Shown piece after piece: positions 1-40,450 of a stretch of 45,826 bases of DNA; position 1 is the stretch's first letter; every line of letters starts with the position of its first letter. This stretch comes from a bacterium (GTDB lineage Bacteria; Patescibacteriota; Microgenomatia; Levybacterales; UBA12049): positions 314,856 through 360,681 of the forward strand of contig JAJYDJ010000001.1 in the NCBI GenBank assembly GCA_021777565.1, given 5' to 3'. The translations under genes and the position numbers were made by a program. Under the pieces are notes generated by a model that worked only from the letters and a program-made list of their open reading frames with translations, was not told the origin of the DNA and did not search any database.

Positions 1-1458
1 ACGAAATATGCCAAGAACACCAATCATTTTATTATTCATGCTCACAAGACTTGTTTTGAACGCGATAGGAAATCGTGTATGGTCGGTACGCACAATATAA
101 AAATCTCCATTTGTGCTTTGAATTTCCTTGCCTTCGCGAAGTGTCTTCACGACTGGTCGCTTTTCGTCAGGGATAAGATTCCCACTCGCATCTTCGGCCC
201 GAATTTGGCTTACAAACGACTTACCAACAATCTGGGACTGTTTAATGCCGGTCATCTCTTCAAAGGCTCTGTTGACAAGGATAACCTTGCCAGTCGTATC
301 TATAACGAAAAGTCCCTCGCCAATAGAAAAAAGTATTGCTTCATCACGAGCTTTCTCAAGTTCTACTTGTCTCTCAGCGCTTCTCCCTTGTAAATAGATA
401 ATTGTGAACAAAAGAATACTTAAGAGTATTCCCCCTGCTCCCACGACCCAAGGCATGACCATGTAAGGGAAATCCCCGCCGAATGAAGGTTTAGCAACCA
501 TCTTGAGTGTCCAGGTCCGTGTCCCAATGGAGATGTGCTCAATTGTTTTGTATGGGGTGGTATATGCAGAGGAGGTGCTGTACTTCCCATTATCATTTGT
601 ATCCAACAGAGTCTCTGCACTGAAGGATGCATCGCCAGTCGTGTCATAAAGTGCGAACGCAATATCTTTATGATTTGGAGAGTTGAGTGCTTTTTCAAAA
701 AGCGTTCGTAGATTAAATACCCCGGACACATATCCTGCGATTGCAGCTCTTCTTTGCTCAACGGTCGTAAGGGGCATGTTTGGCTTATACAAGGGAGCTG
801 AGAAGATAAAACCTGGAGCCTGATCGACAACAATAATAACTTTCTCACTCGCTACAGGGATATTCATGTCTCGCGCGTTCTCTATAACTATCTTGCGAGC
901 TGGACTGGTAAAAAGATCGTATCCGGATGTTCTTAAAGAGTCATCATCGACGGGCCACACAAAAACAACCACTGCATAACTGTCACGCTTGCCTTCTGGA
1001 TAAATAGTAAAATTGGGTAATCCTTGTGGCCGTACACTTCTATCGGCTCTTATTTTATCAATGAATGCTTGTTTTTGGCTGTCAGGGACGATAATGGTGT
1101 AGGTGAGATGATTAATATCAGGATACTGACCAAATTGTGATGTTTCAAGGAAGTTATCCCAGGTAGGTCTATCAAAAAATGGTTGCACTGCAAAAAGCCC
1201 CTGGACGTTATAAAGAACGTTTGTATATGCCTGTACTCGTTGGGTTAGTGATATTTCGATGTCTTCTGTCTGTCTCGTAAATTCATTTTGTAGTCCTTCC
1301 TGAATGGTTTTATTGGTATAAAGCCATATAAAGTAGGTGAGTAGTAATATCATACAGGCTACCCCTGAGGCGAGCACAAAAACACTCATTTTTTTCACTC
1401 GTGGAGACATATACCGTAACCTGTGTATAGAAGACAATAATGCGTGGGCAAGATTCAT
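1..1458 (-). CDS. Membrane sensor with CHASE domain plus PAS domain (probable histidine kinase); 3'-truncated by the window edge
   Basis: Not in the ORF track because it has no stop in the window. Manual translation of the minus frame is open from a TGA at 1486-1488 down to base 1. It reads TM1 (MSVFVLASGVACMILLLTYFIWLY), a CHASE-like extracellular domain ending HISIGTRTWTL, TM2 (PWVVGAGGILLSILLFTIIYL), then PAS (EAILFSIGEGLFVIDTTGKVILVNRAFEEMTG). Start is ATG 1458 or ATG 1410. Confidence 0.85.
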   Translation of the reverse strand, partial: MNLAHALLSSIHRLRYMSPRVKKMSVFVLASGVACMILLLTYFIWLYTNKTIQEGLQNEFTRQTEDIEISLTQRVQAYTNVLYNVQGLFAVQPFFDRPTWDNFLETSQFGQYPDINHLTYTIIVPDSQKQAFIDKIRADRSVRPQGLPNFTIYPEGKRDSYAVVVFVWPVDDDSLRTSGYDLFTSPARKIVIENARDMNIPVASEKVIIVVDQAPGFIFSAPLYKPNMPLTTVEQRRAAIAGYVSGVFNLRTLFEKALNSPNHKDIAFALYDTTGDASFSAETLLDTNDNGKYSTSSAYTTPYKTIEHISIGTRTWTLKMVAKPSFGGDFPYMVMPWVVGAGGILLSILLFTIIYLQGRSAERQVELEKARDEAILFSIGEGLFVIDTTGKVILVNRAFEEMTGIKQSQIVGKSFVSQIRAEDASGNLIPDEKRPVVKTLREGKEIQSTNGDFYIVRTDHTRFPIAFKTSLVSMNNKMIGVLGIFR

Positions 1459-2726: not shown

Positions 2727-3054
2727 GTTCCATCCCAACAACCCCATCTTTTTCCTCTTCATCTGTGCTGTAATACGTATGCATATCACGAGCCGCCTGC
2801 TCTGCCGTACTCTTTTTCTCCCACCCAAACTTTTCTACTGGAAGCGTTTGGAACATCTCAAGAAATGTAGGGAATTGATGCAGTGCAACAATCTTTGCTT
2901 GAAACGTATTTTGCTCATTGGACCGAGCAATAAAGGTAATGATATCCCCTACTTTGAGGTGTCTTCTTTTTTCATCAAAGACTCGTGCTTCAAGTGTCTT
3001 CTTGCCCTCTCGAATTTGTTCGAAAGGAATGTCGTTGAGATGTAATTCGTACAT
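2710..3054 (-). CDS. ASCH (PUA-like) domain protein
   Basis: GKKTLEAR (GxKxxExR motif) followed by LKVGDIITF. Confidence 0.85.
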   Translation of the reverse strand: MYELHLNDIPFEQIREGKKTLEARVFDEKRRHLKVGDIITFIARSNEQNTFQAKIVALHQFPTFLEMFQTLPVEKFGWEKKSTAEQAARDMHTYYSTDEEEKDGVVGMELTLLV

Positions 3055-35109: not shown

Positions 35110-35811
35110 ATGAAAATCACTAAGATATTTCGACTAGAAATTCCTGAGAACGCAAGTGTAAATCAGATACGAGATTATTTGACACTCGAAGAGACGAAAA
35201 AGGTTATCGACTTTCTTGAATCCTCAACCTTATTTGAAAAACAAGTAAAATCATTAAGAAGCAGATATAAGATTCCTCTTAATGGATATCCTACAGACAA
35301 CAAACATTCCCCCTACGACATTTTAGGACGAGAGAGCTTTTCTGCGCTTGAGTCTGATTGCTTTACATTACTAAATACTCTTACCCTTCCTGAATATTGG
35401 CTAGAAACAATAAAAATGTTTGTATTCCACAATGCAATTATTACTCCAAAGAAAGAAGCTTTTCGAATAATTCCGAGAGAGAATACGCCACAAGGTAGAG
35501 AGCTATATCCATATATAGAAATCCTAGAGAGGCTAAGTAAAAGGCAATTTTTACTTGAAGTCGAAAAAAACTGGCAAGAAATAGAAGAAGCAATGAAAGT
35601 ATTACCTAGTACCCCCAAGCATAAAATGCTGCGATCAGACCTGGCAAAAAGGATAGTTGAGCTACACGACATCGATAGTAAAACATTCGCACAAATTGCA
35701 GATCAGCTATTTCAAGAGTTAATTGAATCTGGTGACTATAACATTATCAACGAAGACTATGTTAAAAACCTATACCACCGATGGAAAAAACGTAAAGATT
35801 CTGTTTTTTAA
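35110..35811 (+). CDS. Hypothetical protein, possibly with a C-terminal HTH (element regulator)
   Basis: C-terminal RIVELHD...TFAQIADQL...YVKNLYHRWKK resembles an HTH; first gene of the mobility module. Confidence 0.6.
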   Translation: MKITKIFRLEIPENASVNQIRDYLTLEETKKVIDFLESSTLFEKQVKSLRSRYKIPLNGYPTDNKHSPYDILGRESFSALESDCFTLLNTLTLPEYWLETIKMFVFHNAIITPKKEAFRIIPRENTPQGRELYPYIEILERLSKRQFLLEVEKNWQEIEEAMKVLPSTPKHKMLRSDLAKRIVELHDIDSKTFAQIADQLFQELIESGDYNIINEDYVKNLYHRWKKRKDSVF

Positions 35812-35928
35812 GCCAAAGCGTATTAGTTAATATCCATAACAACTCATACCCAGATCATTAGATACGACCTTTAGCCGATACAGACTTCAATAACTACAAG
35901 AGTTACTCTAATTCAGAAAGGTAACTCC

Positions 35929-36216
35929 ATGCATAAAATTAAAGTAACGGATATACAAATCATACCTATTGTCCCAAAAGATGGATTGGTAGGATTTGCA
36001 AGCATTGTGCTTAATAATTTGCTTTATCTTAGTTCAATCGGTATTTATACTCGACTAGAAGGTGGATTTAGGCTAACCTATCCTACAAAAAAAGTAGAAA
36101 TTAAGAACATAAACATCTTCTATCCAATTAGCAAAGAGTTTGCAGCCTATTTGGAAATATCTGTAACCAAAAAATTTGAAGAAGTAATAAAAGCGAGGTT
36201 ATATGCAAACGAATAA
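35929..36216 (+). CDS. SpoVG-like nucleic-acid-binding protein
   Basis: VTDIQI...GFASIVLN...GI...G...YP...FYPI fits the SpoVG pattern. Confidence 0.7.
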   Translation: MHKIKVTDIQIIPIVPKDGLVGFASIVLNNLLYLSSIGIYTRLEGGFRLTYPTKKVEIKNINIFYPISKEFAAYLEISVTKKFEEVIKARLYANE

Positions 36217-36370
36217 CCTACTGCCACAACAAGCAATTGATGAATTTAAAATCATATACCTCAAGAAATTTGGTAAAAAGATCACTGATGAACAAGCACG
36301 AGTACAAGCTATGCAATTGTACCAGCTCTATGACGCTGTGTATAGAAAACGAGTAAAGCAAAAGTCTTAG
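36203..36370 (+). CDS. Small helical protein (55 aa): MQTNNLLPQQAIDEFKIIYLKKFGKKITDEQARVQAMQLYQLYDAVYRKRVKQKS
   Basis: Below the ORF-track cutoff; overlaps the SpoVG-like stop; GAGG 4 nt upstream; fills the gap before rep. Confidence 0.75.
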   Translation: MQTNNLLPQQAIDEFKIIYLKKFGKKITDEQARVQAMQLYQLYDAVYRKRVKQKS

Positions 36371-36398
36371 CGTATTACTAGGACTTCTGTACACAAAT

Positions 36399-37577
36399 AT
36401 GATAATTACTATGATAGATACTATTGGCTTTTCTATACCTCTTGGGAGCTATACGGTTCTCGATCGAGCACTATTTACTCCTTCTCTTGATTTGATCGAT
36501 CCACAAAATGACTCAGAGGTCATCCAGTTCTTACAAACTAAGAAAGGGATTCAAAGCTATCGACTGAACCCCAAGCATACACAAAAAGAACAAGGTTTCG
36601 CTTATCCAAACATAACTATCTATGAGACATATAAGCATACCAGTGGGTATCAATGTAACCTCAAGCCACATATCTCTATTCCCAAAATGCTCTTTGGACA
36701 TAGTATTGAAGAGGTCAATGACACCTACTATCAAGAGGCTGTTAATACACTACAGTCACGACTCAAAGATATGGGCCTATTAGTATTCGAAAAAGCGATT
36801 CATGAGGCGAGCGTTACCACACTTCATTACTGCATAAACATACTGATGGAATCAGAGACAGACGCTCGAAGATTTCTCACGGCCTTAAGTAAAATGAATT
36901 TAGACGACAGGTACCAAACTCATGATCGTGACTATACAAATGGTGGACGATCTGTTCGTTTTCATACAGATACGTTTGAGCTAATAGCTTACTTGAAATA
37001 CTATGACTTTTTAGAAAGTGGTATGAACAGGATTGATAGAAAGCCGACACTACAAGAAAGAACGATAGCTGAGAGACTATCAAAGTCTAAAACGTTACCA
37101 CCATTGGTCAGAATAGAGGTAAGATTTAATGGGAAGCCATCAATACGAAAACACCTACATACCATTTTAGAAATAGATAAACCTACTTGGACATTGCGAG
37201 ACGTGTTTTCTGAAGACATAAGCAGAAAAGTAGTCAAGTTCTATTGGGATAAACTTATGGATAAACCAAACAATAGGCTTATGCTTATGAATATTTCACG
37301 ATCAGATATATATCGTAAAGCGAAAGAGAACTTCCAACAGATACCCCAACGTATCTTAGACGCGACAATTGGGAGCTTTGAAAGGTTACAGGCAGATGGG
37401 GCATTACAATTTAAAGAAGATGCGCTCAAATTGTATAGCCGAACCAAGTACTATAATGACCAAAAGCGAATAATGGAGTTTCTTCGTATAAATAACTTAG
37501 CAACAGATACTAGGCTTATTGAATTTATTGATAGTGCGGTTTACCATAAACCCATGCAGTTAGGACTTCCTATATGA
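36399..37577 (+). CDS. Putative rolling-circle replication initiator/relaxase (Rep_trans / phage gene II-CRI-like)
   Basis: MIDTIGF start, SIPKMLFGHSIEEV, VTTLHYCIN (degenerate RxD strand), AYLK (YxK), VRIEVR; located beside the integrase. Confidence 0.55.
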   Translation: MIITMIDTIGFSIPLGSYTVLDRALFTPSLDLIDPQNDSEVIQFLQTKKGIQSYRLNPKHTQKEQGFAYPNITIYETYKHTSGYQCNLKPHISIPKMLFGHSIEEVNDTYYQEAVNTLQSRLKDMGLLVFEKAIHEASVTTLHYCINILMESETDARRFLTALSKMNLDDRYQTHDRDYTNGGRSVRFHTDTFELIAYLKYYDFLESGMNRIDRKPTLQERTIAERLSKSKTLPPLVRIEVRFNGKPSIRKHLHTILEIDKPTWTLRDVFSEDISRKVVKFYWDKLMDKPNNRLMLMNISRSDIYRKAKENFQQIPQRILDATIGSFERLQADGALQFKEDALKLYSRTKYYNDQKRIMEFLRINNLATDTRLIEFIDSAVYHKPMQLGLPI

Positions 37578-37579
37578 CA

Positions 37580-37608
37580 TTGACATTGTTTGCTTGGAGA
37601 GAAATAAT
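37580..37608 (+). promoter_or_regulatory. Sigma70 promoter of the recombinase
   Basis: TTGACA (37580-37585), 17 nt spacer, AATAAT (37603-37608); predicted start site near 37615. Confidence 0.6.
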
Positions 37609-37614
37609 ACAGAC

Positions 37615-37701
37615 GTGCTCAGATATTCCTGTTGGGATTTTTAATGCCCTCATTGGACAGATCCTAATAGGTCTGAGCACAACCAGTGGGGGCATTTGAG
37701 T
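37615..37701 (+). ncRNA. Structured 5' leader of the recombinase mRNA with two alternative folds
   Basis: Fold A: 37615-23/37672-80 plus 37628-38/37661-71. Fold B: 37643-56/37683-96. Each long helix includes two G-U pairs. Confidence 0.55.
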
Positions 37702-39339
37702 ATGGATAATAAAATTGAATACTTTATTTATGCAAGAAAAAGTAGTGAATCTGAAGATAGACAAGTACTTTCTATTGAGTCTCAAAAAAATGAAATGAAA
37801 GACCTTGTTAAACGTGTCGGACTTAACATCGTTGCTATAAAGGAGGAGGCACACTCAGCAAAAGCTCCAGGCAGACCCGTCTTTAATCAAATGCTTGATG
37901 AAATCGAGCAAGGTAAGGCTCAAGGAATTATTGTTTGGAATCCTGATAGAATGTCTAGAAATTCAGTTGATACAGGAAGAATTATTTATCTGCTCGACCT
38001 TGGAAAACTTCAAGAACTGGTGACTCCCTCGCAAGTATTTCGGAATACCCCCAATGATAAGTTCCTTCTATCTCTGCTTTGTTCTACAGCTAAATTGGAT
38101 AACGACAATAAGGGTGTCAATGTAAAACGAGGACTCAAAGCCAAGGCTGAAATGGGTATTTATCCAGCGCCTGCTCCTACAGGGTATGTAAATAACAAAT
38201 ACGCAGAGCGTGGCAATAAGACAGTTGAGATTGATCCAGAACGTTTTGATTTAGTCAAAAAGATGTTTGACATGGTTCTTTCACAAAAATATACACCGAT
38301 ACAGGTACTCAAGATTGCTACAGATGATTGGAAGTTTAAAACCAAGGAAGGCAAGAAGCTGGCACGTAGTACGTGGTATAGGATGCTTACTAATCCAGTC
38401 TATGCAGAAACCTTTGAATACCCTCTCAATAGTGGTAACTGGCATAAAGCTGCACACCTACACATGATTACGGACGAACAGTTTGATTTTATCCAGATTT
38501 TACTAGGTAAAAAAGGCAAACAGAAGCCTAAAAGTCACATATTCGCATTTACTGGACTTATTCGCTGTGGAGAATGTGGAGCAATGATAACGTGCGAAGA
38601 GAAGATAAAGAGACAGAAAAGTGGCAAGGTACATGTATATATTTACTACCATTGTACTAAGAGAATAAACCCAGATTGCACACAAGGTTCCATAGAAGAG
38701 GAAGAGCTAAAGAGACAAATTCTTATAAAACTTTCTGAAATAAAAATACCTAATGAGTTTCATAACTGGGCATTAAAGTGGCTCAGGAAAACGAACCAGA
38801 CCGAGTTTCAAACAACAAGCGAAATACTCAGTTCTCAACAAAAAGCATATAAGCTCTGCTTAGAGCAAATAAGCGAGCTCATTGATATGCGAGCTGCAAA
38901 GGAAATTACACCAGAAGAGTTTAAGGAAAAGAAGCCAAACCTAGAAAAGGAAAAGAAACGACTGGAGGAGCTACTTAATGATACGGGAGAGCATGTGAGC
39001 AATTGGCTTGCAAAAGCAGATGATGCTTTTGACTTTGCGAGAGACGCAGTAGCAAAGTTTAATGATGGAGAGTTAGAAGACAAGCGGTATGTCCTTTCAC
39101 GTCTTGGTTCGAACCTCCTCTTAAAAGACAAAATCCTCACTATTACGCTCGACGAGGTACTTGAAGCACTTAAAAGTGTAGCAGAAGAGGCAAATCAACT
39201 TTGTGATACGTTAGAACCTGTAGAAGGTATTGATAGGACAGTCCAATTAGAGACTTTGTACGAACAAAATCCACGAATGCTGCTGAGCCTGGACTCGAAC
39301 CAGAATAAACAGCTCCAAAGGCTGCTGTCCTACCATTAG
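37702..39339 (+). CDS. Large serine recombinase (resolvase, recombinase, zinc-ribbon and coiled-coil domains)
   Basis: YARKS catalytic Ser, SAKAPGRPVF, DRMSRN, CGECG...YYHC...C; the C-terminus reads through the antisense tRNA. Confidence 0.95.
   Translation: MDNKIEYFIYARKSSESEDRQVLSIESQKNEMKDLVKRVGLNIVAIKEEAHSAKAPGRPVFNQMLDEIEQGKAQGIIVWNPDRMSRNSVDTGRIIYLLDLGKLQELVTPSQVFRNTPNDKFLLSLLCSTAKLDNDNKGVNVKRGLKAKAEMGIYPAPAPTGYVNNKYAERGNKTVEIDPERFDLVKKMFDMVLSQKYTPIQVLKIATDDWKFKTKEGKKLARSTWYRMLTNPVYAETFEYPLNSGNWHKAAHLHMITDEQFDFIQILLGKKGKQKPKSHIFAFTGLIRCGECGAMITCEEKIKRQKSGKVHVYIYYHCTKRINPDCTQGSIEEEELKRQILIKLSEIKIPNEFHNWALKWLRKTNQTEFQTTSEILSSQQKAYKLCLEQISELIDMRAAKEITPEEFKEKKPNLEKEKKRLEELLNDTGEHVSNWLAKADDAFDFARDAVAKFNDGELEDKRYVLSRLGSNLLLKDKILTITLDEVLEALKSVAEEANQLCDTLEPVEGIDRTVQLETLYEQNPRMLLSLDSNQNKQLQRLLSYH
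39258..39283. repeat. Right junction: P arm plus GCTGC core
   Basis: GTACGAACAAAATCCACGAAT then GCTGC (39279-39283) at the tRNA 3' end. Confidence 0.7.
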
Positions 39340-39350
39340 ACGACTCAGCA
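39280..39350 (-). tRNA. tRNA-Gln (anticodon TTG), CCA not encoded
   Basis: TGCTGAG/CTCAGCA acceptor stem; D-arm GTCTAATGGTAGGAC; anticodon arm GCAGC-CTTTGGA-GCTGT; T-arm CTGGTTCGAGTCCAG. Confidence 0.95.
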
Positions 39351-39382
39351 AGGTAGCTCTATTATAGCAAAAGGACTGTAGC

Positions 39383-40450
39383 TTAGGAAGCGAGTGAGTC
39401 GTTGATGTCTGCAATCAGTTGTGGCCCAGTAAAGATCATGCCGGTAATGAGCTGCGTAAGATCGGCACCTGCATGAAGCTTCTCTTTTGCATCGTCGGGA
39501 CTAAAAATACCCCCACACCCAATGATAGTAAATCGATTTTTATATTTTTTTCGAGTGAGGGATATAAGATAATTTGACCTGGCAAAGGCGGGTCTCCCAC
39601 TGAAGTTTCCTCTTCCCGCATGATCTATTTCTTCTTTATCAAATGCAGGGTCTGTTCTATCTTGTTGCAAGTTACCGATGATAACTCCAATCGCACTGCT
39701 TGCATTAATTTCTTGCAAAAGTTTTTCAAAAACATCATTTGGTTGCGATATTGGCATTTTGATAAAAAGTGGTCTGGCGAGCTTGAGCTGATCAATAGCG
39801 TGAAGTAGTTTTCTTAATTCTTTCGGATCATAAAATGTGACATCACCAGCTAAATTTGGACAGCTGATATTGAGTTCATAATATGAATGATACATACGAG
39901 CTTTTTCAAATTTTGTAAAACAAGAAACAATATCTTTCACACTGTCCTCTTGTGAAAGTGTGGCATCATTGGTTCTCCCAACACTTATACCAACTGGGAT
40001 AGCAAATGTCTGATTTTGCAAATTTCTAATGATGGCATCTGCTCCAGGATTTTTAAATCCTTTATTTACCAGAAGTGACTGAGACTTGGGAAGCCGTGCA
40101 AGCATCGGTCGCGGATTGCCTTGATAGGAATGGTTGGTTATCGTGCCAATGGTATGAAATCCAAACCCGAGAGTTGGAGTTATTTGTGTCAGTCGTGCTT
40201 CATAATCAAATCCAGCAGCCAGGCCAACTGGACCAGCAAATGGTATGCCATGTAGTGTCCGTTGGAGCTTTTTTAGAGCCGGACCAAAAAGAGTTTTAAA
40301 AAGATATACGGTTAGTTCTCGTGAACCAAAAAATTCACCGAGTAGTGTGAATCTCGTGTGTACCCACTCGGCGTCAAAACGAAAGAGTATGGGTTTCAGA
40401 ATTGATTGGTATACCAGTCCAATAAGTAAACGACAGTATTTTTGTATCAT
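39383..40450 (-). CDS. pyrD: Dihydroorotate dehydrogenase, class 2-like
   Basis: N-terminal helical extension, GLAAGFD, GTIT...GNPRP, NKGFKN, ELNISCPN, IGCGGIFS, QLITG. Confidence 0.9.
   Translation of the reverse strand: MIQKYCRLLIGLVYQSILKPILFRFDAEWVHTRFTLLGEFFGSRELTVYLFKTLFGPALKKLQRTLHGIPFAGPVGLAAGFDYEARLTQITPTLGFGFHTIGTITNHSYQGNPRPMLARLPKSQSLLVNKGFKNPGADAIIRNLQNQTFAIPVGISVGRTNDATLSQEDSVKDIVSCFTKFEKARMYHSYYELNISCPNLAGDVTFYDPKELRKLLHAIDQLKLARPLFIKMPISQPNDVFEKLLQEINASSAIGVIIGNLQQDRTDPAFDKEEIDHAGRGNFSGRPAFARSNYLISLTRKKYKNRFTIIGCGGIFSPDDAKEKLHAGADLTQLITGMIFTGPQLIADINDSLAS

Follow-up and report, generated by a model that had tools for sequence, protein, structure and literature searches.

A putative bistable leader RNA upstream of tRNA-targeting large serine recombinase genes in Patescibacteria

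The window, by which is meant the whole stretch of 45,826 nucleotides analysed here and from whose first letter all positions are counted, contains a gene for a large serine recombinase of 545 amino acids (37702..39339, forward strand). Its product carries the Resolvase, Recombinase and Zn_ribbon_recom domains, is assigned to the integrases of phrog_95 and has more than 4000 relatives in a database homolog search. The last 61 nt of the reading frame overlap, in antisense, the gene for tRNA-Gln(UUG) (39279..39350, reverse strand), and the same layout of recombinase 3' end and tRNA is found in 17 related loci. The overlap is likely to be the attachment junction of a mobile element, and no displaced tRNA-Gln fragment marking the left end was found in the window. 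The recombinase gene is preceded by a gene for a protein of 392 amino acids (36399..37577, forward strand), which lies outside the motif described below and was termed Rep in the original prediction. This protein gave no match in Pfam, PHROGs and PDB sequence profiles, nor in a Foldseek search against the PDB; structural relatives of its AF2 model (pLDDT 85), all of them weak and obtained from BFVD alone, are viral proteins without a name and a single "GST REP" protein of Inoviridae. The assignment as Rep is weak, and the protein is called Rep-like here. In addition, a SpoVG-like protein and a protein of 55 amino acids of the window had been named as possible regulatory factors.

Between the stop codon of the upstream gene and the hairpin described below lies a promoter-like sequence on the forward strand, composed of a -35 hexamer TTGACA (37580..37585), a spacer of 17 nt and a -10 hexamer AATAAT (37603..37608), which ends 6 nt before the first helix. 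It is the top promoter-like match in 35800-39500, agreeing at 11 of 12 positions. Such matches, however, are not enriched in this region (6 found against 10.2 expected), so that the promoter counts only through its occurrence at the same position in homologs. Most of the 42 homologous loci have a TTGACA-like -35 element at an unchanged offset, and a -10 element, which lay outside the covariance model, ends 6 nt before the first helix at a fixed offset in about 35 of the 42. The promoter claimed in the original prediction is thus retained, and the predicted start of transcription, about G37615, coincides with the hairpin's first base or lies very close to it.

The sequence elements described for the original prediction are all present in the window at the positions given for them, and on the forward strand they can be arranged into two folds. 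Fold A is a hairpin of 9 + 11 bp spanning 37615-37680. Its outer helix, P1, is made of a 5' strand at 37615..37623 (GTGCTCAGA, as RNA GUGCUCAGA) and a 3' strand at 37672..37680 (TCTGAGCAC, as RNA UCUGAGCAC), and is followed by a 4-nt bulge of variable sequence (TATT, as RNA UAUU; 37624..37627) and by the inner helix, P2, made of 37628..37638 (CCTGTTGGGAT, as RNA CCUGUUGGGAU) and 37661..37671 (ATCCTAATAGG, as RNA AUCCUAAUAGG). The apical loop consists of an invariant U-run (37639..37642), a loop strand (37643..37656; AATGCCCTCATTGG, as RNA AAUGCCCUCAUUGG) whose core resembles the anti-Shine-Dalgarno sequence, and ACAG (37657..37660), whose CAG, with the first bases of the P2 3' strand, repeats the last bases of the P1 5' strand. 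Behind the hairpin come the linker AA (37681..37682; 2 nt here, 1-2 nt across the family) and a tail strand (37683..37696; CCAGTGGGGGCATT, as RNA CCAGUGGGGGCAUU), whose end is separated from the ATG at 37702 by 5 nt. In fold B the loop strand is paired with the tail strand over 14 bp, 12 Watson-Crick and 2 G-U (repeat I11), as had been proposed. In 91.6% of cells the U-run, which never varies, is able to pair with the purines that directly precede the AUG, and it could in this way extend the loop/tail helix. Fold B also has an inner stem, P3, to which CAG of the loop contributes; the stem itself is present, but in ViennaRNA it has 6 bp (CAGAUC, 37658-63, with GGUCUG, 37670-75) and not the 7 bp with a bulge originally suggested. 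Because a linker of 1-2 nt is too short to span a helix of 20 bp, folds A and B should on geometric grounds be mutually exclusive, which, together with compensatory substitutions in both the hairpin and the loop/tail helix, agrees with the earlier idea that the two folds compete. Two further structures were considered and discarded. An intrinsic terminator of the upstream gene is not called by the scan at 37615-37700, where AACCAG follows P1, and a pairing between the 5' end and the region of the start codon, which appears in the minimum-energy fold of the window, seems by eye not to be conserved in locus L002.

The predicted energies of the two folds are nearly equal. For the window RNA beginning at G37615 they are -35.5 kcal/mol for fold A and -36.3 kcal/mol for fold B, the unconstrained minimum being -36.5 kcal/mol, and the sense strand outfolds all of 200 dinucleotide shuffles (z = -4.1, against -2.1 for the antisense strand and -2.6 for the sense strand folded as DNA). 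In 38 intact members of the family the predicted means are -32.1 kcal/mol for fold A and -31.5 kcal/mol for fold B; the difference between the folds averages 0.5 kcal/mol with a standard deviation of 3.8 and stays within 3 kcal/mol in 25 of these members. When the window transcript is allowed to grow, fold A is the minimum at nt 67-88, and fold B becomes so only from about nt 92. The barrier on the direct path between the folds is predicted to be about 29 kcal/mol in the window, so refolding without assistance would be very slow; in that case fold B may need help to form in cis at all.

The best Shine-Dalgarno match of the window, GGGGG (37688-92), is inside the tail strand, its duplex with the anti-Shine-Dalgarno sequence having an energy of -8.4 kcal/mol and ending 8 nt before the AUG. 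Likewise, in 21 of 22 members in which the motif abuts the start codon the best such duplex falls in the 3' strand of fold B, with energies of -6.4 to -9.8 kcal/mol and ends 5-11 nt before the AUG. In abutting members it is predicted, in agreement with the burial of a G-rich initiation region proposed earlier, that one fold occludes the ribosome site and the other frees it. Shine-Dalgarno masking does not extend to every member: a sister subfamily has its G-rich strand in the loop, and the strand adjoining the AUG, which would be masked, is C-rich, so that "ribosome-binding region occlusion" is a safer expression than "Shine-Dalgarno masking". As a separate observation, weak Shine-Dalgarno matches are common among the host genes of the window.

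Related loci were gathered through database homologs and by a DNA pattern scan; single-protein searches with the recombinase or the Rep-like protein gave no related loci, and an alignment of diverse recombinases was too variable for a locus search. A covariance model (R1) built from 6 loci found 42 copies in contigs of Patescibacteria, and the motif was also present in 5 of 80 and 8 of 80 loci picked by recombinase homology alone. Six pattern matches in viral contigs were put down to chance, the covariance model having matched none of them. In the alignment (A3), which was fitted to the hairpin, 93.5% of hairpin cells are paired, compared with 70.5% in shuffles and 26-46% in slid controls, and 18 of the 20 pairs show double changes. 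Compensatory changes occur at 9 of 9 pairs of P1, in which 96.8% of cells are paired, and at 8 of the 10 modelled pairs of P2. For the loop/tail helix, which was not entered as pairs in the covariance model, 98.1% of cells are paired (slid controls, 28-53%), and 6 pairs with 76 cells show double changes. The search pattern fixed 17 loop bases, but these positions too covary in unbiased members, for example AGUG/CGCU in L134 and AAUA/UAUU in L250. P3 is paired in 92.8% of cells (slid controls, 8-48%) and is backed more weakly by compensatory substitutions, namely one well-covarying pair and two loci, L138 and L233, in which the loop changes together with P1. Furthermore, there are 109 G-U pairs and 9 A-C mismatches across the family, an excess which indicates that the sense strand is the folding strand and which bears out the single-stranded function that the G-U pairs had suggested. 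Across more than 50 related loci the structure is conserved and covaries, which places it beyond chance; the covariation fits pairing within one molecule or between copies equally.

With Rfam 15, the tRNA is the only RNA of the whole window to reach the threshold. A search of 37400-37900 with E values up to 10 gave potC RNA (RF01751) as the best hit, with 22.7 bits against a threshold of 44; 18 related loci gave only tRNAs at the gathering threshold; and loci L083 and L050 gave nothing with E up to 1. The absence of a match in Rfam accords with the original failure to recognise a named RNA family, and the literature searches brought up no earlier description of the leader motif. The motif is consequently regarded as a candidate for a new Rfam family, apparently undescribed so far and widespread in Patescibacteria.

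The motif travels with tRNA-targeting large serine recombinases and not with the Rep-like gene. The downstream recombinases are 26-85% identical, and the upstream genes vary; the Rep-like gene adjoins the motif only in the window and in five other loci (L001-L005). Various arrangements exist downstream. In six copies, from five loci, a structured domain of 280-480 nt, likewise without a match in Rfam, is inserted between the motif and the start codon, and in another locus (L062) there is a spacer of 72 nt; with such a long insert or spacer the motif cannot directly mask the ribosome site concerned. There are also copies without a recombinase, four of which have decayed helices or a decayed promoter; recombinase-less copies with a promoter occur beside tRNA genes.

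From these sequence comparisons, the region is rather probably a bistable translational leader of the recombinase mRNA, with fold A predicted to be on and fold B off, and this is the reading preferred here. A leader of roughly 90 nt would be made from its own sigma-70-type promoter, the first transcribed base being the first paired base of the 20-bp hairpin. Fold A, with P1 and P2, would be complete when 67 nt have been transcribed; it would cap the 5' end and keep both the AUG and the G-rich Shine-Dalgarno region unpaired, and translation would therefore be on. In fold B, 14 nt of the apical loop would pair with the 14 nt beginning 2 nt past the hairpin, and the loop copy of CAGA from the P1 5' strand would capture the P1 3' strand to give P3. 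The first ~27 nt would then be freed and the ribosome-binding region buried, turning translation off, and the mRNA in this state may perhaps be less stable. The proportion of transcripts in each fold would set the amount of recombinase made, and may depend on folding kinetics, ribosome loading or some further factor. The start site, the folding order, the effects on translation and stability and the trigger are the parts of this model that we infer.

Two other readings also make the RNA a regulator. One fold could be an aptamer or a protein site, and binding, for instance of the recombinase itself or of the small SpoVG/DUF5659-like protein, would shift the balance between the folds. The U-run, the helix ends AAUG/CAUU and UUGG/CCAG, and ACAG are conserved beyond the needs of pairing, one core is joined to differing downstream arrangements as in riboswitches, and DUF5659/SpoVG-like genes are located upstream of the motif in at least 12 loci. 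However, no protein besides the recombinase is common to all loci, four loci have a divergently transcribed gene 54-87 nt upstream of the motif, nearly all conserved bases are paired in one or other of the folds so that little is left for a pocket, and the gene context, with a recombinase downstream, suggests no metabolite; such a ligand- or protein-driven switch is considered unlikely, though it is the best placed of the alternatives. Slightly less probable is pairing in trans, in which one leader, or a short leader RNA from a resident or remnant copy, would use its apical loop to kiss the free tail of another recombinase mRNA and so block the ribosome site of that mRNA; if true, this would amount to copy-number-dependent repression or to immunity to incoming elements, like the antisense control of plasmids. 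The exclusion of the folds and the barrier of about 29 kcal/mol constrain pairing in cis only and not between molecules, and the loop/tail covariation is equally compatible with this possibility. In its favour are also the promoter-bearing leader copies without recombinase beside tRNA genes, the U-rich tract that follows the tail in recombinase-less and long-extension copies, and the replication genes carried by many motif-bearing elements. On the other hand, P3 and the loop copy of the P1 5' strand make sense mainly for intramolecular refolding, the near-equal energies of the cis folds would be a coincidence, and four of the recombinase-less copies are decaying.

Readings in which the DNA itself is the functional form, or in which the loop is translated, have much lower probabilities. 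An origin (single- or double-strand) for rolling-circle replication by the adjacent Rep-like protein, which had been offered earlier as an alternative, would suit the resemblance of that protein's predicted fold to viral proteins including the "REP" of Inoviridae, and G-T wobbles in a hairpin specific to one strand would be in keeping with a single-strand origin. It is nevertheless very improbable: more than 30 motif loci lack the Rep-like protein, some having a primase-polymerase gene and some no replication gene, the motif is missing from a locus (L006) in which both the Rep-like gene and the recombinase are present, its distance from the conserved promoter and the recombinase start codon is fixed, and the Rep assignment is weak. 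Just as improbable is a double-stranded operator, accessory site or attachment inverted repeat for the recombinase or a regulator, to which the nested inverted repeats beside the recombinase gene might point, since half-sites bound by protein should be conserved and not free to covary, and the excess of G-U over A-C (109 to 9) would be meaningless in duplex DNA. Moreover, the tRNA, 1.6 kb away, is where the element has its junction, which makes the motif internal, and 22 nt lie between the arms of the motif, whereas serine integrases use attachment sites that are contiguous imperfect inverted repeats of about 40-50 bp around a central dinucleotide. Least probable of all is attenuation by a leader peptide, in which translation of a 7-codon frame (MPSLDRS) opened by an AUG in the loop (37644-46) would remodel the hairpin. 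An AUG followed by codons for Leu-Asp-Arg is readable in most pattern-selected members, but no Shine-Dalgarno sequence precedes it, it lies inside a 22-nt hairpin loop, the frame length varies widely, the variable codons alter the amino acid and yet keep the pairing, and the AUG is lost in unbiased members (AUA in L250, ACG in L226, GUG in L134), in which the tail compensates.

The preferred reading, a two-state translational leader, can be compared with several known systems. In hok mRNA of plasmid R1 and the leader of the MS2 maturation gene, kinetic control of folding masks the ribosome site; there, as proposed for the recombinase leader, alternative long-range pairings of a 5' leader decide whether the Shine-Dalgarno sequence is free, the structure formed first in transcription differs from the later one, and no small-molecule ligand is needed. 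However, the recombinase leader has no sequence or structural homology to them, its two folds are predicted to be near-equal in energy and are both kept by covariation, its RNA is predicted to start exactly at the hairpin and would control a serine recombinase, and it has no known antisense partner or processing step. In IS10 and IS50, which use fold-back inhibition, and in IS200, which has a 5' UTR stem-loop, 5' structures control transposase translation. These share with the leader, where it is predicted, the limitation by a mobile element of its own recombinase through burial of the ribosome site; they rely on a single inhibitory pairing, often in read-through transcripts only, and encode DDE or HUH transposases, whereas the leader described here would be two-state, with a dedicated promoter and a tRNA-targeting large serine recombinase. 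The SAM-II and preQ1 riboswitches sequester the Shine-Dalgarno sequence by means of a pseudoknot, and these and riboswitch expression platforms resemble the leader in their exclusive helices, in loop-to-tail pairing over the ribosome site and in a core with varied downstream arrangements. The leader, however, is without an evident ligand pocket, a metabolic gene context or a match in Rfam, and its loop/tail helix cannot coexist with the hairpin, so that it is no true pseudoknot.

A possible likeness to the FourU thermometer lies in the invariant U-run and its potential partners, the purines before the AUG. The U-run, however, may lengthen a 14-bp helix by a small amount at most, and helices of about -30 kcal/mol are predicted to be much too stable for melting at physiological temperatures. 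The bridge RNA of IS110 is a 5' UTR RNA that guides its recombinase and is thus also a structured RNA in the 5' UTR of a mobile-element recombinase; the enzyme here, however, is a serine recombinase and not a DEDD recombinase. A guide or bridge function was rejected, since the variable bases of the leader are all within self-complementary helices and the longest words that match the tRNA ±40 nt, directly or by complementarity, average 7.4 nt, the level of shuffled motifs (7.1 nt); helix type also does not follow tRNA identity across loci. Finally, the ssoA-type single-strand origins of rolling-circle plasmids resemble the leader in that a long, imperfect hairpin, specific to one strand, is found close to a putative Rep gene, whereas the leader is unlinked to the Rep-like gene across loci and is fixed relative to the promoter and start codon.

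Few natural RNAs are known in which two exclusive folds are both under selection and balanced in energy without an obvious ligand. The leader is short, dozens of diverged copies already provide compensatory mutants, and besides a large structured extension its family has at least one sister subfamily. The large serine integrases, the enzyme class that the leader would control, are a mainstay of genome engineering, and synthetic circuits may find in the leader a compact element for expression that is pulse-like or depends on state. More speculatively, and with a probability lower than that of trans pairing, the leader and the ornate domain of 280-480 nt could together form a functional RNA that partners the tRNA-targeting serine recombinases. 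Such a partner might sense the integrated or excised state, act in trans as an immunity RNA from resident or remnant copies, or set the direction of recombination in elements without a recognisable directionality factor. In any case, the motif marks a large group of serine recombinases whose coding 3' end overlaps the target tRNA gene, and it offers a testable system for how the very small mobile elements of Patescibacteria may time or limit the synthesis of their integrases.

All elements that the original prediction had read from the sequence are found on inspection at 37580-37704, just before the large serine recombinase gene (37702-39339, +), whose 545-aa product has Resolvase, Recombinase and Zn-ribbon domains and is a phrog_95 integrase. 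The predicted promoter, TTGACA and AATAAT with a 17-nt spacer (37580-37608), scores 11/12 and is the top promoter-like match in 35800-39500. Fold A is a + strand hairpin made of P1 (37615-23 with 37672-80), a 4-nt bulge and P2 (37628-38 with 37661-71), and the central 14 nt of its 22-nt apical loop are the loop strand (37643-56), which pairs with the tail strand (37683-96) through 12 Watson-Crick and 2 G-U pairs, as had been proposed. The tail strand begins 2 nt after the hairpin and ends 5 nt before ATG 37702. In nearest-neighbour models, the source of all energies in this work, the sense strand folds as RNA at -36.5 kcal/mol and beats 200 of 200 dinucleotide shuffles (z = -4.1), while z is less extreme for the antisense strand, at -2.1, and for the sense strand folded as DNA, at -2.6.

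The family was traced from the 392-aa gene upstream of the leader (36399-37577, +), which is conserved with the element. Gene order is kept in all six contigs carrying homologs (L001-L006), and a gap of roughly 125 nt ahead of the recombinase is kept in five, complete in four, the L001 contig stopping inside the motif; the gap sequences of these five loci align with obvious compensatory changes. In L006 the two genes are joined by 30 nt and the motif is absent. A pattern scan of one genome per species (TTTTTAATG-N6-TTGGACAG) gave 119 stretches, and a hairpin covariance model built from six sequences sorted true copies from chance matches, yielding 36 true new copies and bringing the alignment (A3) to 42. 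Their hosts are nearly all Patescibacteria (Levy-, Roizman-, Gottesman-, Ames-, Woese-, Chisholm-, Shapiro-, Davies-, Jorgensen- and Dojkabacteria, and WWE3), with a few copies in bins carrying other taxonomic labels. Since the pattern fixed 17 loop bases and biased the sample to copies keeping the loop consensus, extra loci were fetched purely by recombinase homology; the motif occurs in 5/80 and 8/80 loci of two such sets, and many of the related recombinase genes lack a leader and seem coupled to an upstream ORF.

Regions upstream of homologous recombinases, to which the original prediction had directed attention, show covariation in the hairpin, the loop/tail helix and P3, the inner stem of fold B, although the covariation counts do not represent independent events. 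In A3, which was fitted to the hairpin structure although the sequences themselves show the compensations clearly, 93.5% of hairpin cells are paired against 70.5% in shuffles, 18 of 20 pairs change on both sides, and pairing falls to 26-46% when the partner is slid by 1-3 columns. The loop/tail helix provides an independent test because it was never modelled as pairs: 98.1% of its cells are paired (slid controls, 28-53%), double changes affect 6 pairs and 76 cells, and one position takes AU, UA, GC, CG and UG. In P3 pairing reaches 92.8% (8-48% in slid controls), and one pair covaries well. Furthermore, positions fixed by the search pattern also covary in the recombinase-selected loci, with AGUG facing CGCU in L134 and AAUA facing UAUU in L250. 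Joint changes in L138 (loop CAUA, P1 CAUA/UAUG) and L233 (loop CAA, P1 CAAC/GUUG) indicate that the loop reproduces the end of P1's 5' strand, as strand exchange into fold B requires.

The argument from sense-strand G-U pairs holds across the family, the three helices having 109 of them against 9 A-C mismatches, the form that G-U pairs of the opposite strand would take. In addition, a -35/-10 pair (means of 4.2 and 4.3 matches of 6) lies at a fixed offset in most loci, in a region outside both the covariance model and the search pattern; because the -10 ends 6 nt before P1, transcription is predicted to start at the first paired base of the hairpin. The wobble asymmetry, this promoter and the distance of 5-11 nt from the motif to the recombinase ATG in 22 loci together suggest that the recombinase mRNA begins with this motif as a sense-strand RNA.

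In all members the linker from P1 to the tail strand is 1-2 nt, too short to bridge 20 bp of helix; on this geometric inference the hairpin and the loop/tail helix are mutually exclusive, in keeping with the competition originally proposed. The enforced folds are close in energy, at -35.5 (A) and -36.3 kcal/mol (B) in the window; in 38 intact members with P1 or the loop/tail helix enforced the means are -32.1 and -31.5 kcal/mol, with a mean difference of 0.5 (sd 3.8) and 25 of the 38 within 3 kcal/mol. For the growing chain of the window the minimum is fold A at nt 67-88 and a fold-B type only from about nt 92, and a direct refolding path has a saddle of about 29 kcal/mol above either state, an upper bound; on these grounds, fold A would form first and then persist unless conversion is helped.

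When the 25 nt before AUG are matched to the anti-Shine-Dalgarno sequence, the tail strand's G-rich core gives the best match in 21 of the 22 start-abutting members, at -6.4 to -9.8 kcal/mol and with its end 5-11 nt from AUG, and the loop strand core GCCCUC itself resembles the anti-Shine-Dalgarno sequence. Fold B is thus predicted to bury the G-rich initiation region, as first suggested, and the reading as a translational on/off leader is favoured. An invariant U-run could lengthen the loop/tail helix through pairing with the purines just before AUG. Fold B would leave about the first 27 nt of the mRNA unpaired. An unpaired 5' end exposes mRNA to 5'-end-dependent decay in many bacteria, and fold B may thereby expose the leader mRNA to it.

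Other readings were weighed against this translational leader. A single-stranded, rolling-circle origin for the adjacent Rep-like gene, the original alternative, is contradicted by the motif distribution, as the Rep-like gene lies upstream only in the window and L001-L005 and L006 lacks the motif. This holds despite weak support that the 392-aa protein is Rep-like: it has no sequence-family match, and its confident AF2 model (pLDDT 85) has no relative in the PDB, but BFVD yields structural similarity to viral proteins without names (E about 4e-11) and, at E 7e-6, to the Inoviridae protein "GST REP". A duplex DNA site is contradicted by the free covariation and the wobble asymmetry, and no terminator is called in the window. 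Against a guide RNA, complementarity to the tRNA target is no greater than in shuffled controls and helix sequence type does not track tRNA identity; a leader peptide is opposed by the loop AUG, which is not conserved. Two rivals are less likely than the favoured reading but stronger than these: the loop/tail pairing may act between molecules, and a protein or ligand may set the choice of fold.

The element is read as a small one integrated in a Patescibacteria genome. Elsewhere the motif follows primase-polymerase-like or DUF5659-like genes, or a divergent membrane-protein gene only 54-87 nt off, and precedes a serine recombinase of 26-85% identity. In every locus complete there, the recombinase 3' end overlaps or abuts an opposite-strand tRNA gene (window, L005, L019, L024, L038, L039, L045, L049, L058, L062, L073, L088, L096, L097, L099, L109, L113). 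In the window the last 61 nt overlap tRNA-Gln(UUG) (39279-39350, -), so that about 20 final codons are its antisense, and chromosomal genes lie beyond, including dihydroorotate dehydrogenase and a second ORF read as mutL. The targets vary between loci (Gln, Asn, Lys, Ser, His, Tyr, Leu, Met), and this arrangement probably puts the attachment site inside the 3' coding end of the recombinase gene. Upstream in the window, no displaced fragment of a tRNA was detected. Three independent assemblies (L002, L003, L004) break exactly at the recombinase 3' end, which fits a repeated or polymorphic tRNA junction, with the element in part of the population only. This recombinase sequence is on record in a 953 kb contig, and a Saccharimonadales label is attached to one homolog of the 392-aa protein. 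The SpoVG/DUF5659-like gene (35929-36216, +) and the overlapping 55-aa gene (36203-36370, +) upstream of the leader have homologs in at least 12 related loci, beside differing replication genes. Within the recombinase gene, AATACCCCCAATG at 38044-38056, coding the conserved NTPND motif, is 85% complementary to the Shine-Dalgarno strand 37684-96. Outside that gene, 37388-37405 repeats 37679-96 directly at 78%. Each similarity probably arose by chance. In L027 (Amesbacteria) ARAGORN calls a tRNA with anticodon UUA ("tRNA-Stop") at 526-600 (-), between tRNA-Gln and tRNA-Lys, which Rfam scores as tRNA at 47.5 bits.

Several variants exist. In 22 window-like loci the motif abuts ATG (L001 is cut before the start codon), and L062 has a distinct 72-nt spacer. 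Six copies place a GC-rich domain of 280-480 nt between motif and start (L083:4111-4418; L049:2240-2518; L058:3735-4130, L113:3145-3538, L100:2566-2959 and L100:502-798, the last four on the - strand), closed by some 17 bp of long-range pairing (AAAAUUUUUGCGUUUUUU with AAAAAACGCAAAAAUU). The domain contains covarying internal hairpins and GUUCGA blocks that recur, matches no Rfam family and is a possible new large structured RNA. L100 carries two diverged leader-extension-recombinase units in tandem (leaders 2960-3053 and 799-901, both -), the first recombinase ORF being 145 aa only and the second 146 aa, though its recombinase similarity runs on to near the fetched end, which suggests successive integrations at one site. 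In nine loci (L027, L033, L035, L041, L059, L063, L091, L101, L110) there is no recombinase, and a tRNA on the other strand comes within about 60-270 nt after the motif and the 5' part of the extension domain. These leader copies come with a promoter, are cut inside the domain and join an intact tRNA gene; in L091 the extension and the acceptor end of tRNA-Thr share 7 nt (GCCGACA), and the junction falls there. Three further loci lack a recombinase in the sequence available, helices or promoter are lost in 4 of these 12, and such copies are read as remnants. Moreover, a sister subfamily (L139, L156, L223, L231, L237, L246, L249, L254, L257, L288; L145 keeps just its tail consensus) is built alike: about 6 nt separate the end of the -10 from a long hairpin, and an apical strand of this hairpin pairs with the stretch immediately 3' of it, which precedes UUUAAGUUUAUG. 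The apical loop here carries the G-rich strand AAGGGGCGGUCUG as well as a copy of the tail's CCCUUUAAG, and the C-rich partner CAGACCGUCCCUUU is next to AUG; read from the sequences, these pairs covary too. L137 and L259 have a one-stem miniature leader.

No Rfam model matches the leader, in accord with the original view that it is no named RNA family, and literature searches turned up no description of it. The hok and MS2 leaders are alike in masking a ribosome site through alternative folding, and IS10 and IS200 in 5' structures limiting transposase translation, without homology to the present leader. From sequence comparison and modelled energies, it is rated as a candidate ligand-free, energy-balanced two-state leader that would be specific to tRNA-targeting serine recombinases of Patescibacteria.
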